DNA of 64,000 bases, from assembly GCA_963720565.1 (NCBI GenBank), contig CAVRFW010000005.1:288001-352000 (forward strand), written 5' to 3'. A program made the position numbers and the translations under genes. The notes under the pieces are model-generated. The model was not told the origin of the DNA and made no database searches. It saw only the letters and a program-made list of their open reading frames with translations. This document shows, in pieces, positions 49,867 through 63,454 of the stretch. The stretch's first letter is position 1. The number at the start of each line of letters is the position of its first letter. The DNA is from Candidatus Bathyarchaeota archaeon. GTDB lineage: Archaea; Thermoproteota; Bathyarchaeia; Bathyarchaeales; Bathycorpusculaceae.

Positions 49867-51346
49867 ATGGGTGAAGGAGAAGGGCGTTCATCGCCAGAAA
49901 GAATTCCTTTGGAGAAATTGAATGATTACTCATGGCGTATCCCGAAATATAGACCAGGAATGTTTGTTCCAGGCATGATTTTCGCCAATGAAGCATTGTT
50001 GACGAAGATGCAAACTGATAGAACCCTTTGGCAGTGTGCTAACGTGGCGCATTTGCCGGGCATCTACAAACATGCTATTACTTTGCCGGATGGCCATGAA
50101 GGCTATGGTTTTCCGATAGGCGGCGTGGCCGCAACTGATTACGAGAAAGGTGTTATCAGTCCAGGAGGCGTAGGTTACGATATTAACTGTGGTGTTCGTC
50201 TCCTTAACAACGAGTTTGTCTGAGAAAGATGTGCGTCCCAGACTTGCCCAGTTGGCGGGTGCTATCTTTGAGAATGTTCCATCTGGTTTAGGTAGTCGTC
50301 GTAAAGACTTCAAGTTTAGCTCCAGCGACTTGGATAGGTTGGTGGTTGAGGGTTCGCATTGGCTTATCGACCGCGGGTTTGGTTGGCCTGAGGATGCTGA
50401 GCATTGCGAGGAAGGGGGATGCATGAAAAATGCTGATCCTGATATGGTTTCTATGACTGCTAAGAACAGGGGTTTAACTCAGATCGGCACTTTGGGTTCA
50501 GGCAATCACTTCTTGGAGGTTCAAAGAGTCGACAAGATTTTCGATTCGAGTACAGCGAAGGTTTTCGGGATTGAACATGAAGGGCAGGTTACGGTGATGA
50601 TTCACTGTGGCTCGCGAGGTTATGGGCACCAGGTGTGTTCTGACTATTTGAGGATAATGGAGCATGCAGTGCAGAAATACAAAATCTCCCTGCCAGATAG
50701 GGAGTTGGCTTGTGCTCCTGGGAATAGTAACGAAGCGAAAGAGTATTTTCAGGCAATGTCGTGTGCAGTTAATTACGCTTTCTCAAATAGACAGGCTATT
50801 ACTCATTGGGTTAGGCAGAGTTTTCAACAGGTTTATCGTGAGGAACCTGAAAAAATGGGGTTGAAGCTGGTTTACGATGTGGCGCACAACATAGCCAAGG
50901 TGGAAACACACAATACTGATGAAGGAGCGAAGAAGGTGTGGGTTCACCGGAAAGGTGCGACGCGGGCTTTTCCGCCCGGAAGCGTTGAGGTCCCGTCTGA
51001 TTATCGTTCGAAAGGACAGCCTGTGCTTATACCAGGTAGTATGGGCACTAGCAGTTGGGTTCTAGTAGGCTCAAACAAAGCTATGGAGTTGACTTTTGGG
51101 TCAACAGCGCATGGTGCAGGCAGGATGATGAGTCGGTCAGCCGCGAAGCGCAAATGGTGGGGCGGAGACATAAAATCTGGTTTGGAGAAGCGGGGAATCG
51201 TGGTTCGTGCCGCGAGCACAGTTGTGTTAGCTGAGGAAGCTGACTCTGCGTACAAGGATGTTGATGTTGTCACAGAAGTAAGTGATCAACTAGGGATTGC
51301 CACAAAGGTTGCAAGGCTTGTTCCATTGGCTGTAATCAAGGGTTAA
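49867..51346 (+). CDS. rtcB: tRNA-splicing ligase RtcB (apparent frameshift near 50202)
   Basis: [14 protein letters not shown] and GYDINCGVR, then in the shifted frame [28 protein letters not shown] and HGAGR. Confidence 0.95.
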
Positions 51347-51662: not shown

Positions 51663-52325
51663 GTGGTAGCTTTCAAAGATGAGTGTGGCATTTGCAGCAG
51701 GGTTCTAAGAACAACTTATTTGCGAAGGTGTGAGCGATGCAAACGCCTATACTGTCGAGACTGCATGACTCCCGATGTTTCCACCGGTGACTACACTAGA
51801 CTGCTTTGCCTGAATTGCGCTAGACGGGTTGTTTCGCCTCGGGTTGTTTCAAAATATGACGGGCTTTCAGGTCACTTGAGGTTTCGGGGCTCCTTCACTC
51901 ATCTTGTTAAGCTCTCTTTTGCAAGGATAGACGGATTAATTGGCAGTAATTTGCCAATGACCGCATTTAGGGAGCAGGGTTGGTGGACCAATTCCGCTGG
52001 GAGTGCCCATGCCCGTGGATGGTTGGATGCAGGTTGGGAAGTCCAGGAGGTAAACATCAAAGAAGGGTATGTTGTGTTCAAGAAGGTGCGGGAAATGCCT
52101 TCTAAAAGGGGAAAACGTGTCAAAAAAGAGGTCTTGAAACCATTTACGCCCGTACCGGTTCACGCTTCTAAACCCAAGATTCCGTCCAAGACGAAGGTGT
52201 CAAAGCTATACGCTAGAATTAAAAACATTGAGCGGCAGCGAACTGCGAATGAAAAGATTAGAGGTTTCAAGCCAAAATCGCAATATGAGAAAAAGCTTTT
52301 CAAACCTCACGAGAAACCACAATAG
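51663..52325 (+). CDS. Zinc-finger protein fused to a small DUF7662-like domain and a basic tail
   Basis: Four CxxC pairs, then SKYDGL...LSFARIDGLIG..LP..A....WWTN...HARGWLDAGW, then a Lys/Arg-rich C-terminus. Confidence 0.7.
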   Translation: MVAFKDECGICSRVLRTTYLRRCERCKRLYCRDCMTPDVSTGDYTRLLCLNCARRVVSPRVVSKYDGLSGHLRFRGSFTHLVKLSFARIDGLIGSNLPMTAFREQGWWTNSAGSAHARGWLDAGWEVQEVNIKEGYVVFKKVREMPSKRGKRVKKEVLKPFTPVPVHASKPKIPSKTKVSKLYARIKNIERQRTANEKIRGFKPKSQYEKKLFKPHEKPQ

Positions 52326-53479: not shown

Positions 53480-53758
53480 TTAATCTTCAAATATGGACTT
53501 AACCCAGAGCGGTCGTCGTCTAGCTGGTTTAGGACACAAGCCTTCCAAGCTTGCGATCACGGGTTCGAATCCCGTCGACCGCACCAAAAGATTTCTATCA
53601 TTTGAGTTTTGCAGAATGAACTGTTTGAAGTGGTTTTCCACGGTTTTTGACAAGTTAAATCCCAATTGTCTGGCATTTTCAACCAATTCTCTGTCTAAAT
53701 ACAACACAACATTTCTCTTTTTTCTCATTGCAACACGCTCGCCCTCTGAAACACTCAT
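53480..53758 (-). CDS. CcdA-like ribbon-helix-helix protein whose frame runs antisense through the tRNA
   Basis: RKKRNVVLYLDRELVENARQLGFNLSKTVENHF is an RHH/CcdA pattern. The tail VRSTGFEPV... is the antisense translation of the tRNA. Confidence 0.6.
   Translation of the reverse strand: MSVSEGERVAMRKKRNVVLYLDRELVENARQLGFNLSKTVENHFKQFILQNSNDRNLLVRSTGFEPVIASLEGLCPKPARRRPLWVKSIFED
53509..53586 (+). tRNA. tRNA-Gly (anticodon TCC), intronless, CCA encoded
   Basis: Acceptor stem GCGGTCG/CGACCGC, anticodon arm CAAGC-CTTCCAA-GCTTG, T-loop GGTTCGAATCC, ends ACCA. TTAAAT box about 30 bp upstream. Confidence 0.97.
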
Positions 53759-53934
53759 TGCATCCCCACCCAAGGGCACGCGAGGGGAAGTTCAATGTTA
53801 TATGTTTGGTCATTTTCCATTTTGCTGAATTCTAACCAAGAGAAAAACACTCATGCATCTTGCTTGGCGAGCTCTCTGAGAGCTCACTACTAATCATTGC
53901 TACGCATTGTCAACTATCATTTATTCAGGTAACG

Positions 53935-54025
53935 TTTAATTTCTAATTTCTAAAATTCTAACTAAAAGAAAAAAAGAAATTCTAAAAAAATAATACATTT
54001 AGAAAATAGAATTTAGAAAATCTAG
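53935..54025. repeat. AT-rich array of TTCTAA/TTAGAA motifs forming an imperfect inverted repeat
   Basis: tttctaatttctaaaattcta...aaattctaaa...tttagaaaatagaatttagaaaatctaga. Confidence 0.6.
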
Positions 54026-54149
54026 ACTAAACAAAACTCAAATCTCACTGGATTTCCATCAATATTGGAACAAGCTGCATCTGTTCTGGCGATAGCAAGT
54101 CTAATATCTGCTTTTCAAGCAATAACAGAACGGTGGGAGACTGTCTGTC

Positions 54150-55456
54150 TTGGATTCTAAGGCGCTAACCAAGATTCAATCCGTGGCGCTTATTGCCATT
54201 GTTGTTGTTGCGGCTGTCGGCGGAGGCGTCGCTTATGTTCTTTTCAATGCAAAAACACAAACAATGGAACCAATAAGAATAGGAGTTTGCGCTGACCTTG
54301 ATGCAGTTGAAGGACAAAACATTTTGCAGGCTGCTACTTTGGCTGCCGAACAGATCAACGCTGAAGGCGGAGTCTTGGGAAGAAACCTCACGGTAGTTGC
54401 AGAAGACGATGACGGTGAAACAGCGGGAGACATTGCAGTAGCAACGAATGCCATGACAAGACTGTTTACCGTTGATAAAGTGGATTTCACAGTTGCCTTT
54501 ATGGGTTTGTTTGCTATTCCTCTTCAGGACATCTGCGCTCAGCAAAAGAAGATTGTCATCTCAGTATATTCCAACTCAGTTGAGGAATCGCAGCGTGTTC
54601 TTGACAACTATGACAAGTACAAGTACTTTTTCTCAATGATGCCAAACACTACTTCCGTACATGATGGCAGACTTGACGATCTCATAACGCTGCGCAACTA
54701 CACTGGCTTTAGCAAGATTGCCTACCTAGACCAAGACGCCTCGACTTTTCAAGAGTTTAGGGACTCACTCTGTGAGTCTTTGACAGAACATGGTTTTGAC
54801 GTTGTCTATAAAAACTCAGCTACATGGCTGACTACTGACTTCTCAAGCTATTTTAGCGCGATAGAGGAATCAGGTGCAGAAGTACTTACTGGCGGCATCT
54901 TTGGTTCTCAATGTATTCCTTTTGTTAAGGAGTATTATAGTCGCCAATCGCCTTTTGTTGTTTGGGGGAGTTTTATGGGAGCGCAGCAAGAAAACTTTTG
55001 GGAGCTAACAGAGGGAAAATGCGAGTATGTAACTTTTGCTGGGCTGTCAACCATAGCTGGGTATCCTTTGACGAACAAAACAGTGGCAGCTAAAGAAGCG
55101 TATTTTCAAAGGTGGCATGGGACTCTAACAATGGGTGGAACATTAGCCTACGATGCTGTTAGATTCGTTTTGCCCGACGCCATCAAGCGGGCTGGGACAA
55201 CTGAAACTGAAGCCGTTATCAAAGCTTTGGAGAAAACTGATGTTGAGATCTCTGTGGCACGGCATTTTGTTTTCTCTTCCTCGCATGGGGTAATGCTTTC
55301 ATCTACGTAGCAAATAGACCAGATTCGAACTACATGGTAGCTTTACTGTTCCAATGGCAAAACGGAACCCAAGTGCCCGTCTATCCCAAAGAAATCATGG
55401 AGAAGGCAGGGGCAACCTACCAGTATCCGCCTTGGCGAGGACCTTGGAGCAAATAG
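54150..55456 (+). CDS. Branched-chain amino acid (LivK-like) solute-binding protein with class III signal (apparent frameshift near 55300)
   Basis: DSKA|LTKIQ plus TM helix, AAEQINAEGGVLGR, AYDAV and AIKRAGTTETEAVIKALE. The other frame continues FQWQNGTQVPVYP...PPWRGPWSK* to 55456. Confidence 0.85.
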
Positions 55457-55561
55457 CAAAACGTTGACATCGCATTTGTTATAGCAATCCAAGCAAAACC
55501 TTTTCAGCAGTCGTTTTCATAAATAGTTTGACACAAAACAGCTCCTGTTCCAACCCAAGGC

Positions 55562-58500
55562 GTGGCGCCAACAAAATTGAAATCGAACATATTATCAGAG
55601 CCCAACTTAGTAGGTAGAGAACGCGAACTTGAACAGTTAGAGTCATTCCTGAATTCCGCTTTAGAGGGGAATGGAAAAACCGTCTTCATCTCTGGCGAGG
55701 CAGGCAGTGGAAAGTCAAGGCTTGCCCGAGAATTCTTAGGATATGCAAGGAAAAAAGGCGTAACGGTGCTTACTGGTTGGTGCCTCAGCGAGGCTGCAGC
55801 TCCATATTTCCCTTTCATTGAGGCGTTTAATGCATACTTCGCTTCCGTGGAAGAGGCACAGCTAGGAAATGCTCAGCAGCCCGGATCTAAGATTGGAGAA
55901 GCTGTGCAAATTGAAGAGCGAGAAATAGCTGCTCTGCTATCTGGACCGAGACAAGTGGATAAAGCTGGAAGGGTCGAACCTCTTTCGCCTCAGGTTTGGA
56001 AGACCCAAGCATTTGACCGGGTTGCAAAAACCCTCCTAACAATATCCTTTGAAAGACCTCTTGTTCTCTTCTTGGATGATGTTCACTGGGCGGACTCGGC
56101 CTCCCTTGCACTTCTGCACTATATTTCGCGCATCGTGAATAATTCTGAAAAAATCCTGGTTTTGGCGACTTTCAGAAGAGAAGAAGTCACAGCAGACGAG
56201 GAAGGGCGTCCGCATCCGCTTGAAGAGGAAATGCGGGCGATGAGCCGCGAAGACCTCCATTCAGAAATCAAGCTGACAAATCTCAGCCAAGCCGACTTTT
56301 CCGTGATTGCCCAAAACATGTTGGGCGATCCAGTTCAGCGGGAGTTGGTCGAGAGGCTAATAAAAGAAGGCAATGGTAACGCGTTGTTTTTAGTTGAGTC
56401 TTTGAGGATGCTGGCTGAGCGAAAGGGACTTGTTCAGGAAAATAATGAATGGCGATTGTCGGTGGATGATTTTGGCATTCCCTCCAAAATTAGGGACATT
56501 ATCTTACGCAGATTGGCTGTGCTAAACTATGCGCAGAGGAGAGTTCTTGATGCAGCATCTGTCATCGGGGAGAAATTCAACGTGGAATTGCTTGCCTCAG
56601 TTCTCAACCAAGAGAGCTTGGAAGTGCTGGACATTTTGAACTTTATCGCTCAATCAACCGCTATTGTTAACGACGAGGAAGACTTTTACAGGTTTGACCA
56701 TGCAAGGTCAAGGGAAGTTCTGTATGAAGCGCTTTCTTTGTCCTTGAGGAAAGGGTATCACGCCAGGGTTGCCGAGAGGCTGGAAAGCACTAATAAGAGC
56801 GGGAAGTTGCCTTCTGCTGATTTAGCCTACCATTATGCGCAATCAGGAAATGATGAGAAAGCAGTAAGGTATTCTTTATTGGCTGGACAGGAGGCTTTGG
56901 TGAGATCCAGCAATAGAGAGGCCACAAACAAGTTTTGAATATGTCATCCGAAAAATCGGAGAAAACACGGAGTCTTTTGGCTGATAAAACCGTTGCTCTG
57001 GAGGGATTAGGTGATGCACTCTATGGCGATAACAAGTTCCTAGAAGCGAGGAAAACATTCGAGAAACTCGCTAAACTCCAAAATGGCAAGCCTAGACTAA
57101 GAGCTTTAAGAAAGGCAGTTGTAGCCGCTTTCTACCAGATCGATATACCAAAGATTCAAGAACTGACCGAAATGGCTGAAACCATTGCTGCCGCTGATCG
57201 TGTCGAGGCAGCAAGAATACTAGATCACAAGGGGCGGATTGCTGGATTACAGGGGAATCTCGAGTATTGTCTCAAGCAGGTGAAAGACTCGATTGGAGTC
57301 TATGAAGAAGAGTATTCTCTGCCCGATGCTGCCTGGGATCTCTTTGCACTCAGTTTCGGGGAAGCTTCGTTCGGAGAATTGGAGAGAGGAGTTGTGGCAG
57401 CTCTACAGGTCTCTCGCTCTGTACGAAACCCTTGGGGACGTCCATTCCCAGCTAGAAGCATACCTCTTTGCAGGTTGGTGCTTTGATTTCTGTACACTCG
57501 AAGAAGAAGCAGTCAAAATGTATTTGAAGATTATTGAGATTGACAGCAAATTCAAGCTAAATGATTATGTCCGCTTAATTCCAGCATATACTGGATTGGC
57601 ATATAACTGGCTTATGAACAAGCCCCAACAAGCAGATGCCATGATTGGAAAAGCGCTTGAATATTGTGAAAAGAGCGAAAACCCAAGAATTGCAGGAGTC
57701 TATCAATTCCTCGTTGTAAAGAGCATGATTGACGGAGATGTCGCCAAGGGAGAAGAGTATTTTGAAAAACTTCAACATCTGCCCCGGATGGCTTTGAGCA
57801 GTCAAACTGCAATTATTACATCTGAACAGACAAAAGCCATGTATTTTGCGGGGAAAAATCAATTCTCGGAAGCAGAGGAGTGTTTTCAGAAACATTTTGC
57901 TTACCTCAGGAAACATTTAGCGAGTCCAGGGATGGAAGCGGGTGCTATGGGCTTTTACTGGTGGCTCTTAAACAAGCAAGGCAGAATGAAAGAGGCAGAA
58001 ACAACGCTTAAACAAATAAATGCGTTAACCGAGAATGCACAAAAGAAGTTTGCCCATGTGAGTGTTCACAGCAGCCTTATGACTTTCACACATCCCGAAG
58101 TCAACCAAATTTTTGAAATTAGACTTGACTTGGTCAATCCTTCCAAGGCTCAAGGTTCCATTATCAGAGTAGAGAACTTTATCGTTCCAGAACTTCAGAC
58201 TTTAGAGGTATCACCGAATTGCTTTGTTCGTGATGTAAATGTTGAGTTTAAAGACAACGTCATTAAGCCTTTTGAAGTCAAAACAGCCATCCTGACTGTA
58301 AGAGCGCAAAAACCTGAAGTGTTCAATCTCATTCCAACAGTTGCTTATGTGGATGATTTGGGAAAGACAAAAACATCGAGTTGCAGAAATTTCACTATAA
58401 CCGTCAAGCCACTGCCTCAAGCAGCAGTTCAACCAGAATTTGAAATTCTGCCGGGGCGAGTTCCAACAGGCTTTTCAGACCTTGACGCTTTACTTCATGG

Positions 58501-59125
58501 TGGCATACCGGAACACTATGCCATAATACTCACGTCACCTTCAACAAACGAAAAAGAACTGATAGTCAAGAAATTTCTTGAAACAGGAGTCTCCGCTAAC
58601 GAAATAGTATTCGATATTACAACAGATGCGGCAGCAGGCAAAGAATTAGCCGAAAAGCACCCGTCAAAATTCTATTTGTTGCTCTGCAACCCCCAAGCCG
58701 ACGCCATGATCCAATCCGCACCTAACATCTCCAAAATTAAAGGCGTAGAAAACCTTACAGAAATTGACATCGCACTAACGAAAGCTTTCAGAACACTGAA
58801 CCCTTCGGCGAAAGGTCCGAAGAGAATCTGCATCGAAATAGTTTCAGACGTTCTGCTTCAACACCACGCCATCAACACTAGAAGATGGCTAAGCGCTCTC
58901 CTGCCAACGCTGAAATCAAAAGGCTTCACCATTCTAGCAGTTATTGACCCGCAGATGCATCCGCCTGAAGAGTTGCAGTCTATTGTTGGCATTTTTGACG
59001 GAGAAATACGGGTCACCGAGAAGGAAACGCCTGAAGGCATCAAACAGACGTTGAGAGTTCGGAAACTGCTTAATCAGAAATATTTGGACAAAGAGATAGT
59101 TCTCGCCAAGGAGAGTCTATCTTAG
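55562..59125 (+). CDS. STAND-type NTPase - TPR repeats - Ig-like domain - inactivated KaiC/RecA-fold fusion (frameshifts near 56935, 56978, 57406)
   Basis: LVGRERELEQL, Walker A GEAGSGKS, Walker B LFLDDVHWAD, GNALFLVE, YRFDH, helical repeats, beta-rich IRLDLVN...PTVAYVDDLG, then RVPTGFSDLDALLHGGIP. Three +1 shifts rejoin the ORFs. Confidence 0.75.
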
Positions 59126-59297
59126 TGTGTTTTGTCATTTTCTGATTTGATTGCTATTCTGTTCCGGAGCCCCAGCAAACCCTCAGAGTGTGATATTTAT
59201 TCTTTCAGGTCTATAGACTTGTCACCTTTTTGGGTCTACCCCCATTTGGTCTCATCGGAGGGTTGTTTTCCGAAATAAAGGTGTTTGTGAGGAGTGT

Positions 59298-59830
59298 TTA
59301 GCGCCCTATCTTGCCCCCGAATTGGTGTAAAATGGTGATAAGCCTTATTTTCAGATTTGAGGCAGATTTGAAGCGAACACTGCAACTTCTTCTCCTTGCA
59401 CCAACCGCCCTTCTCAAACCTGCAGATACTTCGTCTTGCATGCCAGCTTCATCGTGTTTTCGTCTCAGTTCCACATGCTCTGCCTCGATACGCCTACAAT
59501 CTACGCACTCGGCAAAGCGTTTCTGATAGATGCCAGATGCCTGAATTATACTCCTTAGACGTGCAATCTCCGTCTTAGATAACTCCTCGCTCTCCGAGGC
59601 GTTCATGCATCCGCCAGCTTCAGGAGAGCCTTTTCGACGCTGTGCAGCCTAAAGGGCAACGGCAAATCCAAACGAGAAGTTGTTGTTACACTTGAATTTG
59701 CGGATGTAACAACTTCTAATCCCAAACGCGCAATCTTCATGCTTACGCACTCTCTGGATTTGCCCATGATGCGCGATATGGCTCGTGCTGCGCGCGCACA
59801 AGCTTTCAATTCCCCTTTTTTAGTCCGTAA
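59298..59830 (-). pseudogene. Decayed HTH + coiled-coil gene of a mobile-element-associated type
   Basis: ISRIMGKSRECVSMKIARLGLEVV...LHSVEKALLKLADA and ...KTEIARLRSIIQASGIYQ...RRIEAE read as one protein split at 59603-59606, with a degraded N-terminus. The family link is from memory. Confidence 0.45.
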
Positions 59831-60026
59831 CAAACAATCCGAGCAACAAGCATCAAGAGGAGAAGATAGGCTGAATGGGCTCTGGATTAAACTCACGATG
59901 GCTTCGTAGTAGCCTTCGAAAAACATTCTCCTATTCTCCTTTCGGGCAGAAGCGCGCGCTGGGAGACGATCTTCTCTTTTTGCAGTAATCCTCACGAGAG
60001 GTCGGTCTAAATTCCGTATTGCTTAG

Positions 60027-61560
<1,534 letters not shown>

Positions 61561-61623: not shown

Positions 61624-63454
61624 CTATGATAAGGAAACATACTTTCGCAATTCTTTTGCGACGTTCGATATTCCAAGTTTGCTCAGCGTTGCTTTTTTGG
61701 GTACTCCTCGCTGGTCCCAGCCTCTCTTCTTGTAGTAGTTTTGCAGCATAATATCAAATCTTGCAGGGTCAAGCATAGAGCCTTTCATCGGTCCCTTCGT
61801 AAGCGGTTCCTTGAACCATCTCGGGGGTGGAACATCCATCTCTTTTGTCCATTCTCGGTTGTACTCGCGTATCCAGAAAGCTCTGATTATTGTCAGTACT
61901 CTGTCCGCGATGTAGTTCAGCGCATTCCATGTTAACTCCGTTCCAGTTGCAGCGAACAGAAACTTTGGATACCATTCAATCTCCAAGCCGAGTTGAGCGA
62001 GGGGAAAACGGCACAAGGTCAAATATTCAAGAATTCCTCCGCGGACACGCTGTAACTCGATGAGTTTGTCAACTTTGTCTTCACCATAACTTTCCCGTCC
62101 TTCCTTGACTTCCCAGCCAATTATCCACGCATCCTTGTGATGAGCTCCGATTGAGCTGGTGGAATAAGACAATGCCATAGCAGGAGCGGCATGACAATCG
62201 TAGGCACTTATCTCCAAACCCTTTACATGCATTGCCCAATCTGCTGATCCATGTCCAATTTTTGCTAGCAGCTGCTTGTACGCCATCAGCGAGAACATCG
62301 CCAAAACCGCGTCTATAAGCAATGTCTTCAATCAAAGCCTTGGCTTCCTGGAATTTTCCCCAATGGAGCTTCTCGGGGATTCGTTTCTTCTGGGAGGTTT
62401 CTATTGCGAACCCCAGAACGTTACCCAGAGAGATAGCATCTAATCCAAGCTCGTCTGCGATACGATTCAAAGTTGCTACTTGCTTGATATTCCCCAATCC
62501 GATGTTAGAACCAAGCATAACCACGTTTTCGTAGTCAAGTTCAGCCTCTTTTTTTTCAGAGTCTGTAACCACGTTTCCACACGTCATGTTGCAGGATGGG
62601 CAGCCTCTGTTTGAAACCTTGATTCTTTCCATGGCGAATCCCCCTATTTTCTGGGCTTCGTCAAAGACGCCTTCGCTGAAATTACAGGTCGGCAGAACGC
62701 TGTTTTCCTGGCTCCATTCAACAGTGGACATTGTACCTTGCTGTTTCCAAAAAGCATAGTTTGGTTTTGTCAGGATTTCCCTATAGCCTTCAGCGCTTAA
62801 GTCGTTCAATTCTTTCGGATAGGCGGTTGGTATATCCTCAGAACCTTGAAACACCACAGCCTTTAGATTCTTGGAACCCATGACTGCTCCCATTCCAGGT
62901 CTTCCGCCGGCGCGCCCTTCTTGAGAGATTACGGTGGCAAACTTTACGAGGTTCTCTCCTCCCGGACCAATGCTGACAAATCCCGCGTTGCGTTCGTTAG
63001 AGCTCCTTAGCCGAGCTTCGGTTTCGAAAGTACTTAAACCCCAAAAATCTTGGGCTTCCAGAAACTCTGTGACCTTGTTTTCTATGTGTAGAATTACAGG
63101 CGTTTTTGCTTTTCCTTCAATTATTACCGCGTCGAATCCGGCTTTACGCATATGAAGAGCAGCGTTGGTTCCTATGTTTCCATCTCCATAGCCGCCTGTT
63201 AGAGGACTCTTAGCGGCAACAACAAGTTTGCCGCTGTTGGGTAAACCCAAACCCGTTAGAGGGCCAGCAGCGAAGATTAGCTTGTTTTCCGGTGATAGCG
63301 GGTCTGTTCCAGGCTTAAGTTGGTCCCAGAGAATCTTGGCGGCGAAGCCTCTGCCCCCGATAAAATTCAAGGCTAAGCTCGAATCATATGATTCCGCTAC
63401 TGCCTTGTTCTTGCTCAGGTTGATTCTTAGAAAAACACCAGTCCAACCGAACAA
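61624..63454 (-). CDS. aor: Tungsten-dependent aldehyde:ferredoxin oxidoreductase (apparent frameshift at 62259-62263)
   Basis: KSPLTGG, GMGAVMGSKNLKA, CPSCNMTC, DELGLDAIS, MHVKGLE, LCRF and YYKKRGWD. Confidence 0.9.

Follow-up and report, generated by a model that had tools for sequence, protein, structure and literature searches.

The 64,000-nucleotide stretch of Candidatus Bathyarchaeota archaeon DNA analyzed here (the window; contig CAVRFW010000005.1, positions 288,001 to 352,000) harbors two adjacent genes on the forward strand, which together make up a cassette at window positions 54150-59125. The first encodes a solute-binding protein (SBP) of about 435 aa with the LivK fold of the HAAT family (54150-55456; assigned from Pfam PF13458, the reading frames and frameshift-aware alignment). 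After a spacer of 105 bp (55457-55561, taken from the sequence) follows a gene for a STAND NTPase that continues through a predicted TPR sensor and an Ig-like sandwich into an inactivated KaiC-like domain (55562-59125). The source genome, which we label G000, comprises 2.09 Mb in 13 contigs and is 88.8% complete. Named homologues are from Bathyarchaeia. We have analyzed the architecture of both proteins, the recurrence of their linkage and the sensing function that they may share.

The SBP starts at a TTG codon (54150) and matches Peripla_BP_6 with E=2e-36. The called open reading frame stops at 55310, while the C-terminus of the family continues in a different frame as far as the stop codon at 55456; frameshift-aware alignment places a one-base deficit near 55309. 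The initial annotation had put the STAND start about 105 bp after the SBP on the same strand. This distance, from the SBP end at 55456 to the GTG at 55562, is correct only when the frameshift near 55309, absent from that annotation, is counted. The N-terminus has a class III-like signal and one membrane helix. A single N-terminal transmembrane segment is predicted in 118 of 120 SBP homologues and a second one in none, and a K or R stands directly before an A-L-T-K motif in 94 of the 120, an arrangement like that of a class III signal. A similar signal peptide is seen on canonical liv SBPs as well, and therefore the class III-like signal is not specific. The PDB matches are HAAT SBPs, and with its Peripla_BP_6 fold and its export and anchor signal the protein belongs to this group. 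Within the family, short and highly variable segments are set into a conserved scaffold; going by LivJ, and aided by alignments to PDB entries, these segments presumably line the ligand cleft. As noted earlier, neither a permease nor an ABC ATPase gene adjoins the SBP in the window. A 1616-codon frame at a locus elsewhere (L052:3930-8777, minus strand) is similar to LivK-like binding proteins and possibly contains several fused binding domains.

The initial annotation had joined three +1 shifts into one gene of about 1190 codons, and we find about 1186 codons between 55562 and 59125. The STAND module (55562-56800) consists of a nucleotide-binding domain (NBD), a helical domain (HD) and a winged-helix domain (WHD), and was assigned from AAA_16 (E=4e-30), motif tallies and a fold match to 6mfv. 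Its P-loop is intact, as had been proposed: Walker A (GEAGSGKS, 55694-55717) is present in 59 of 59 homologues, and Walker B, which reads LFLDDVHWAD here, was tallied likewise, the STAND motifs being intact in all 59. The sensor-1 Arg is invariant among the STAND homologues, and the WHD His and a GxP-like motif are intact, the latter being of the GNPLF type in 47 of the 59 and of the GNALF type, as in the window copy, in 12. By its Walker motifs, sensor-1 Arg, GxP motif and winged helix the protein is a TPR-sensor STAND of the MalT/PH0952-like, AAA_16 kind. The arm and TPR solenoid (56801-58045) contain the three shifts and are the predicted sensor; TPR matches were obtained, and the assignment draws on the AlphaFold model of an intact paralogue. 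Next come the Ig-like beta-sandwich of BatD/DUF11/TRAP-beta-like kind (58046-58405; model, BatD matches and generic Ig matches) and the KaiC-like domain (58406-59125; PF06745 with E=3e-12, motif tallies, alignment and a fold match to PH0284). In the AlphaFold model (mean pLDDT 81.6, the NBD being less certain), the NBD, HD and WHD are followed by a long helical solenoid and then by a beta-sandwich and a RecA fold; in the PDB the model is closest to the KaiC-like PH0284 (2dr3, the top match) and the TPR-type STAND PH0952 (6mfv). The helical repeats, beta-sandwich and RecA/KaiC-fold C-terminus that had been read from the sequence are confirmed. Variability is greatest in the second half of the TPR region, with 38% mean identity compared to 63% in the NBD and 60% in the KaiC domain. 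The modelled sandwich is all-beta (pLDDT 94.5), has a BatD match in 31 of 57 members and resembles generic Ig folds (best Z 11.7, rmsd 2.6 over 112 residues). It is common to the STAND proteins and to helical partner proteins that have no STAND module. In the ESM Atlas a helical partner matched TPR-like clusters with a best score of 0.88, which is a lead only. A strongly hydrophobic 19-residue window occurs in 3 of 59 STAND homologues and in 0 of 5 helical partners, in line with the earlier remark that no membrane transducer is visible.

The C-terminal domain has lost the hallmarks of an active KaiC or RecA-like ATPase: GK[TS] is found in 0 of 59 homologues and K-x-R-G likewise in 0 of 59. In an alignment with five active KaiC proteins the Walker A lysine and the Arg finger are absent, and the Lys-finger position keeps a basic residue. 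Its KaiC fold, its degenerate P-loop and its fusion to sensor or regulator domains make it an inactivated KaiC (iKaiC) domain. There is no DNA-binding effector domain of the MalT/LAL kind, the C-terminus being Ig plus KaiC fold; a winged-helix-like end in place of KaiC occurs only in sister STAND proteins (assigned by eye). The same dead KaiC is present in 72 of 401 genomes of the class, the source genome included, and is fused to winged-helix, FIST, CBM96, kinase-STAND and helical fronts. Thirteen of 40 fetched dead-KaiC loci end tail-to-tail with a KaiC-like gene (judged by eye), and five such proteins have intact motifs. These findings support the inactive KaiC C-terminus and a signalling rather than an enzymatic output, both suggested before. 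The loci L222, L225-L228 and L231 have winged-helix- and helical-dead-KaiC genes beside a KaiC gene and a bactofilin-domain gene. Further dead-KaiC fusions are encoded at L229, L234, L257, L258 and L252: FIST-iKaiC proteins, of which one continues into a winged-helix-like end, CBM96-Ig-iKaiC, an N-terminal iKaiC with STAND-TPR, and kinase-STAND-TPR-iKaiC.

Frameshift-aware alignment places the three shifts of the STAND gene at about 56930, 56979 and 57406. Contigs of related populations have one base fewer at 56932/56936 (2 of 4 runs), 56979/56982 (1 of 4) and 57406 (3 of 4), a comparison that bears on these three shifts and not on the one in the SBP gene. An unbroken STAND paralogue of 1175 aa, preceded by an SBP, is encoded on the same contig, and the best 120 of 892 STAND homologues (the query apart) have open frames of 1010-1243 aa at 48-79% identity. 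Because the relatives' contigs are without the extra bases, the paralogue is unbroken and the homologues are open, we read the shifts as most likely being assembly errors and the locus as one gene, as initially annotated, and not as three separate ORFs. Throughout the source genome the family genes are affected: 96 shifts in 46 kb (18 genes; 72 single-base insertions and 24 deletions) and 7 stops, with breaks in 16 of the 18 genes examined (one only by alignment past the gene end), against at least 13 shifts in 93.7 kb of 84 other genes, a lower bound from a coarser method. Such an excess would be expected if the copies in this genome were decaying pseudogenes, but 72 of the 96 shifts are single-base insertions, two of the only 7 stops met are at gene ends, the related populations are without the extra bases at the window locus, and housekeeping genes (rtcB, proS) are split too. 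We consider decay very unlikely. We read the excess as uncorrected sequencing error concentrated in variable loci, with recent inactivation in this strain as a less probable alternative. Simple homopolymer miscalling was rejected as the type of error, since 28 of 96 shifts lie near runs of 3 or more compared to a background of 36%, which is no enrichment. In the window one shift each is seen in rtcB (49867-51346), proS (60045-61560) and an aldehyde:ferredoxin oxidoreductase-like gene (61624-63454), all named by eye.

The cassette is one of many in this genome, which holds 12 STAND copies (one with a winged-helix-like end), 9 SBP loci and two STAND-less helical-Ig proteins. Six of the nine SBP loci lie directly upstream of a family STAND, which we take to be beyond chance; the remaining three are a copy head-to-head with a STAND, another that faces a helical-Ig-dead-KaiC gene in this way, and a fragment within the same cluster. 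PF13458 has no match in the genome outside these nine loci. With four LivH/LivM queries tblastn gave 0 liv permease matches in this 88.8% complete assembly, and no liv-type ABC ATPase was met in it either; both PF02653 matches are part of a different ABC operon, whose neighbor is a nucleoside-phosphorylase-like gene (labelled by eye). An active KaiC is encoded on contig 11. STANDs without an SBP often adjoin one family of the major facilitator superfamily (MFS), and both copies of this family in the source genome do so. An alpha/beta-hydrolase gene (contig 4, 67482-68858) separates an SBP-STAND stub from the STAND after it; in a relative, a related gene comes after a STAND (L032:12275-14824).

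The initial annotation had asked whether the adjacency recurs, and it does, in a broader form than proposed: 43 of 50 SBPs of the clade, in 9 genomes, abut a STAND- or helical-type gene of the Ig-dead-KaiC family, so that the partner may also be a helical-repeat protein. By genome the counts are 8/9 in G000, 2/2 in G241, 3/3 in G136, 7/11 in G449, 1/1 in G479, 1/1 in G595, 21/21 in G610, 0/1 in G606 and 0/1 in G611. The dead-KaiC tail is present wherever the contig is long enough. The constant neighbor is the repeat-Ig-dead-KaiC protein, and STAND is one of two interchangeable fronts. The two genes are head-to-tail in G000 and G241 and head-to-head in G000 and G610. All 21 SBPs of G610 lie in tandem arrays, two of them head-to-head with a STAND; G449 has four solo copies, and the SBP of G606 sits in a plain livHMGF operon. 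Liv permease genes lie beside 5 of the 50 clade SBPs, four of these being head-to-head with a helical-Ig-dead-KaiC gene, and the clade has 11 SBPs per clade permease locus in G449 and 21 in G610. A quick, midpoint-rooted tree separates the SBPs, as a single clade, from 15 canonical liv SBPs (support 100); inside this clade the head-to-tail STAND-linked ones form one subclade (SH-aLRT 98). To judge from these comparisons, the SBP link persists with a different partner and the STAND link appears to have arisen more than once. The SBP does not simply group with orthologues from normal liv operons, an outcome that the initial annotation had considered. Its description as an orphan stands insofar as no permease adjoins it here, but it is not an orphan by descent, because its clade has five members beside liv permease genes.

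Among reference genomes the SBP clade is rare, being found in 2 of 300 genomes of the same family besides the source genome, in 4 of 400 genomes of the class at 44% identity or more, and in 6 of 60 genomes of a second family. It is common in metagenomes, with at least 120 homologues at 51-99% identity to one member. Two metagenome contigs carry the SBP followed by the STAND. Indirectly, 11 of 49 long contigs with SBP homologues equal contigs with STAND homologues in size, for which 0.3 would be expected by chance. A search for related loci with the SBP found none; with the STAND alignment, most of the 160 loci obtained were distant bacterial STANDs and only about 12 belonged to the close family.

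We propose that the cassette, an anchored SBP with a STAND-TPR-Ig-dead-KaiC protein, derives from ABC uptake and is one unit of a solute-sensing repertoire that reports to an active KaiC ATPase. We put the chance that this proposal is right at about even. Each SBP would capture a different small solute outside the cell, and uptake of the solute would be left to a common transporter from another locus: the single liv operon of the clade in genomes that have it, and a different transporter in the source genome. The TPR sensor would then bind the solute or read the state of the transporter, as MalT does with maltotriose and MalK; it is from this analogy with MalT and MalK that we take the sensor to read the imported solute or its transporter. 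The STAND core would swap ADP for ATP and oligomerize, and oligomerization would cluster the dead KaiC domains, which keep the Lys finger and have no Arg finger, so that they could dock on an active KaiC and modulate it, an action that has been proposed for archaeal iKaiC domains (PMC5847659). The KaiC hub might relay the signal, for example to winged-helix regulators. We infer every step from ligand to output, starting from features that are observed, namely both architectures, the dead motifs, the adjacency, and the variable TPR and SBP segments.

Several observations weigh against this proposal. An SBP neighbor is found at only 7 of 11 STAND loci of the source genome (the winged-helix-ended one left out) and at only 6 of 15 close STAND loci in other genomes, and the closest paralogue of the window STAND (75% over the NBD) has none. 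The SBP loci are not independent, 41 of the 50 coming from three genomes. SBP and STAND parts have no common phylogeny (9-11 pairs, Mantel p 0.21-0.93, from noisy read-through sequences), and the weak co-phylogeny of the helical pairs fades under within-genome permutation (rho 0.30-0.39, p 0.10-0.19). The domain relationships are mosaic. Neither STAND nor SBP was found in the four same-genus genomes searched (65-96% complete). Since there is no co-phylogeny and many STANDs lie beside an MFS gene or beside neither, the pair is not the fixed cognate unit that had been envisaged.

The mosaic relationships, the missing co-phylogeny and the absence from these congeners would also fit with hitch-hiking, in which ancestral neighbors are co-copied by tandem duplication and recombination into variable sites while SBP and STAND remain functionally uncoupled. 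Tandem arrays on contig 4 of G000, in G449 and in G610 point in the same direction, as does the position of the loci in the source genome, where 6 of 11 family loci are within 600 bp of a tRNA gene compared to 14% of random 5-kb stretches within 1.5 kb of one. At the window locus this is tRNA-Gly(UCC) (53509-53586, forward strand, found by ARAGORN), the cassette starting 564 bp past its 3' end. No attachment-site repeat of the tRNA 3' end of at least 11 bases was found within 25 kb at any of the six loci. None of three integrase matches is at the window cassette, and one fragment lies beyond the tRNA of the MFS-STAND locus on C5. The tRNA adjacency is not general, any tRNA being present at 9 of 60 loci in other genomes, by a scan that missed at least one visible by eye. 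Hitch-hiking alone seems improbable, for the linkage spans two families, two orientations and two unrelated fronts, and four dispersed single cassettes in the source genome keep both genes with SBPs that are about 50-68% diverged.

A solute-sensing repertoire fed by a transporter also has to deal with the genomes in which the order is head-to-tail. No liv permease was found in G000 or in G241 (85% complete), and therefore the solute-entry step has no visible carrier there; the clade permease was not found in G479 and G611 either. In such lineages the anchored SBP might act as a permease-free receptor that signals to the STAND via a membrane partner or a pilus-like assembly, with no uptake involved. 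The single subclade of head-to-tail SBPs, the many metagenome homologues, the basic residue before the motif likened to class III signals and type IV pilus ATPases in 5 of 5 genomes tested are compatible with this idea. However, none of the genomes concerned is complete (85-92%), the pairs are not flanked by any conserved third gene or membrane protein, and the signal is shared with canonical liv SBPs. We regard a receptor of this kind as unlikely.

Returning to a repertoire derived from ABC uptake, the most economical reading of the sequence comparisons is that the ancestral unit comprised a helical-Ig-dead-KaiC gene, an SBP and livHMGF, the order of events being inferred from the midpoint-rooted tree. 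SBP and sensor would have multiplied, the transporter being kept as a single copy or lost, and STAND-TPR would have replaced the helical front at least twice. The wider idea, that an amino-acid-type ABC importer was turned into a repertoire of paired receptors, in which arrayed SBPs of differing pockets are each matched by an NLR-like or TPR sensor, all of them feeding one KaiC hub through dead KaiC domains, with no permease in some lineages, is one that we hold to be doubtful.

STAND switches linked to ABC uptake have precedents. MalT is controlled by maltotriose and MalK, and the mechanism of TPR-type STANDs has been described (PMC6468293). The cassette resembles MalT with MalEFGK2 of E. coli and PH0952 of Pyrococcus horikoshii (6mfv) in STAND core, arm, TPR sensor and fold match, and the former also in tying such a switch to an uptake system. 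It differs in that the output is a C-terminal Ig and dead KaiC instead of a DNA-binding domain, the SBP has the LivK fold, there are many paralogous cassettes and a permease is often not nearby. HAAT (LivKHMGF) importers can have several SBPs per core, and the clade is like them in SBP fold, its five liv-adjacent members and the 11:1 and 21:1 ratios; unlike in HAAT systems, most extra SBPs adjoin their own large cytoplasmic repeat-dead-KaiC protein, and the clade is separate from canonical liv SBPs. Archaeal KaiC proteins have reportedly been proposed as a signalling hub by Makarova, Galperin and Koonin in 2017, with iKaiC domains such as DUF835, MEDS and iKaiC-REC. Fusions of iKaiC are tabulated in PMC5847659, and the likeness to the present proteins is a dead KaiC fold joined to varied sensor or regulator domains, often with an active KaiC adjoining. 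In the sections of that paper that we consulted these are REC fusions in methanogens, Thermoplasmata and Nitrososphaera, and not STAND-TPR-Ig or SBP-linked arrays.

The earlier suggestion of a nutrient-sensing or defence/signalling unit finds support for signalling, and none that is direct for defence. In an immune reading, variable TPRs would respond to virus proteins or to damaged surface proteins, and the dead KaiC would relay to dormancy or death, as in NLRs. The many copies, the patchy distribution, the arrays and the variable repeats recall immune receptor repertoires, and at least 90 prokaryotic STAND families are associated with defence according to the portion of PMC13581612 that we consulted. 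The cassette indeed shares STAND, TPR sensor, variable repeats and multiple copies with Avs proteins and NLRs, but it has no nuclease, protease, membrane or other toxic effector domain, its neighbors are uptake genes, and the effector is N-terminal in the families of the same portion while the output is C-terminal here. PADLOC 2023 returned 0 families for the intact paralogue and for another homologue only a weak P-loop match (E 2e-4), none of which is above noise. We therefore judge immunity to be quite improbable.

In the literature searched we found nothing on the SBP clade, on its tie to two kinds of dead-KaiC sensor or on the arrays. The parts of the cassette are of known kinds; the SBP linkage and the arrays are new to that literature, which also gave no defined input for an archaeal KaiC hub in this lineage. 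Signalling through such a hub is a standing prediction, and the loci offer candidate inputs in the form of soluble, crystallizable SBPs, a switch (STAND), a common output (dead KaiC) and a likely target (active KaiC). The hub idea can hence be put to the test in vitro, with no need to grow the host. If the proposal is true, it explains how an abundant lineage of sediments can survey many organic solutes in the absence of two-component systems, and it gives multi-copy, variable NLR-like proteins a role outside immunity.

The flanks of the cassette contain a few further features. A conserved 5' block (54081-54149, forward strand) is common to the co-directional paralogues and has 77-91% DNA identity to six other sites in the genome; from an alignment of 27 upstream regions it probably comprises a BRE (transcription factor B recognition element)/TATA-like element and a purine-rich ribosome-binding site. 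The spacer at 55457-55561 contains no terminator-like site, and a sigma-70 promoter and terminator scan over 53600-59700 remained at chance level. Between the tRNA-Gly gene and the SBP lies a CcdA-like antitoxin/ribbon-helix frame (53590-53779, minus strand; PF07362, E 8e-6), for which no toxin partner was seen and of which a similar stretch occurs on contig 9. From the STAND stop to proS (59130-59950) there are DNA repeats of 50-150 bp that are 75-97% alike to sites on five other contigs and are possibly miniature mobile elements. Further upstream, a gene for a zinc-finger and DUF7662 protein (51663-52325, forward strand) likewise adjoins rtcB in a relative.

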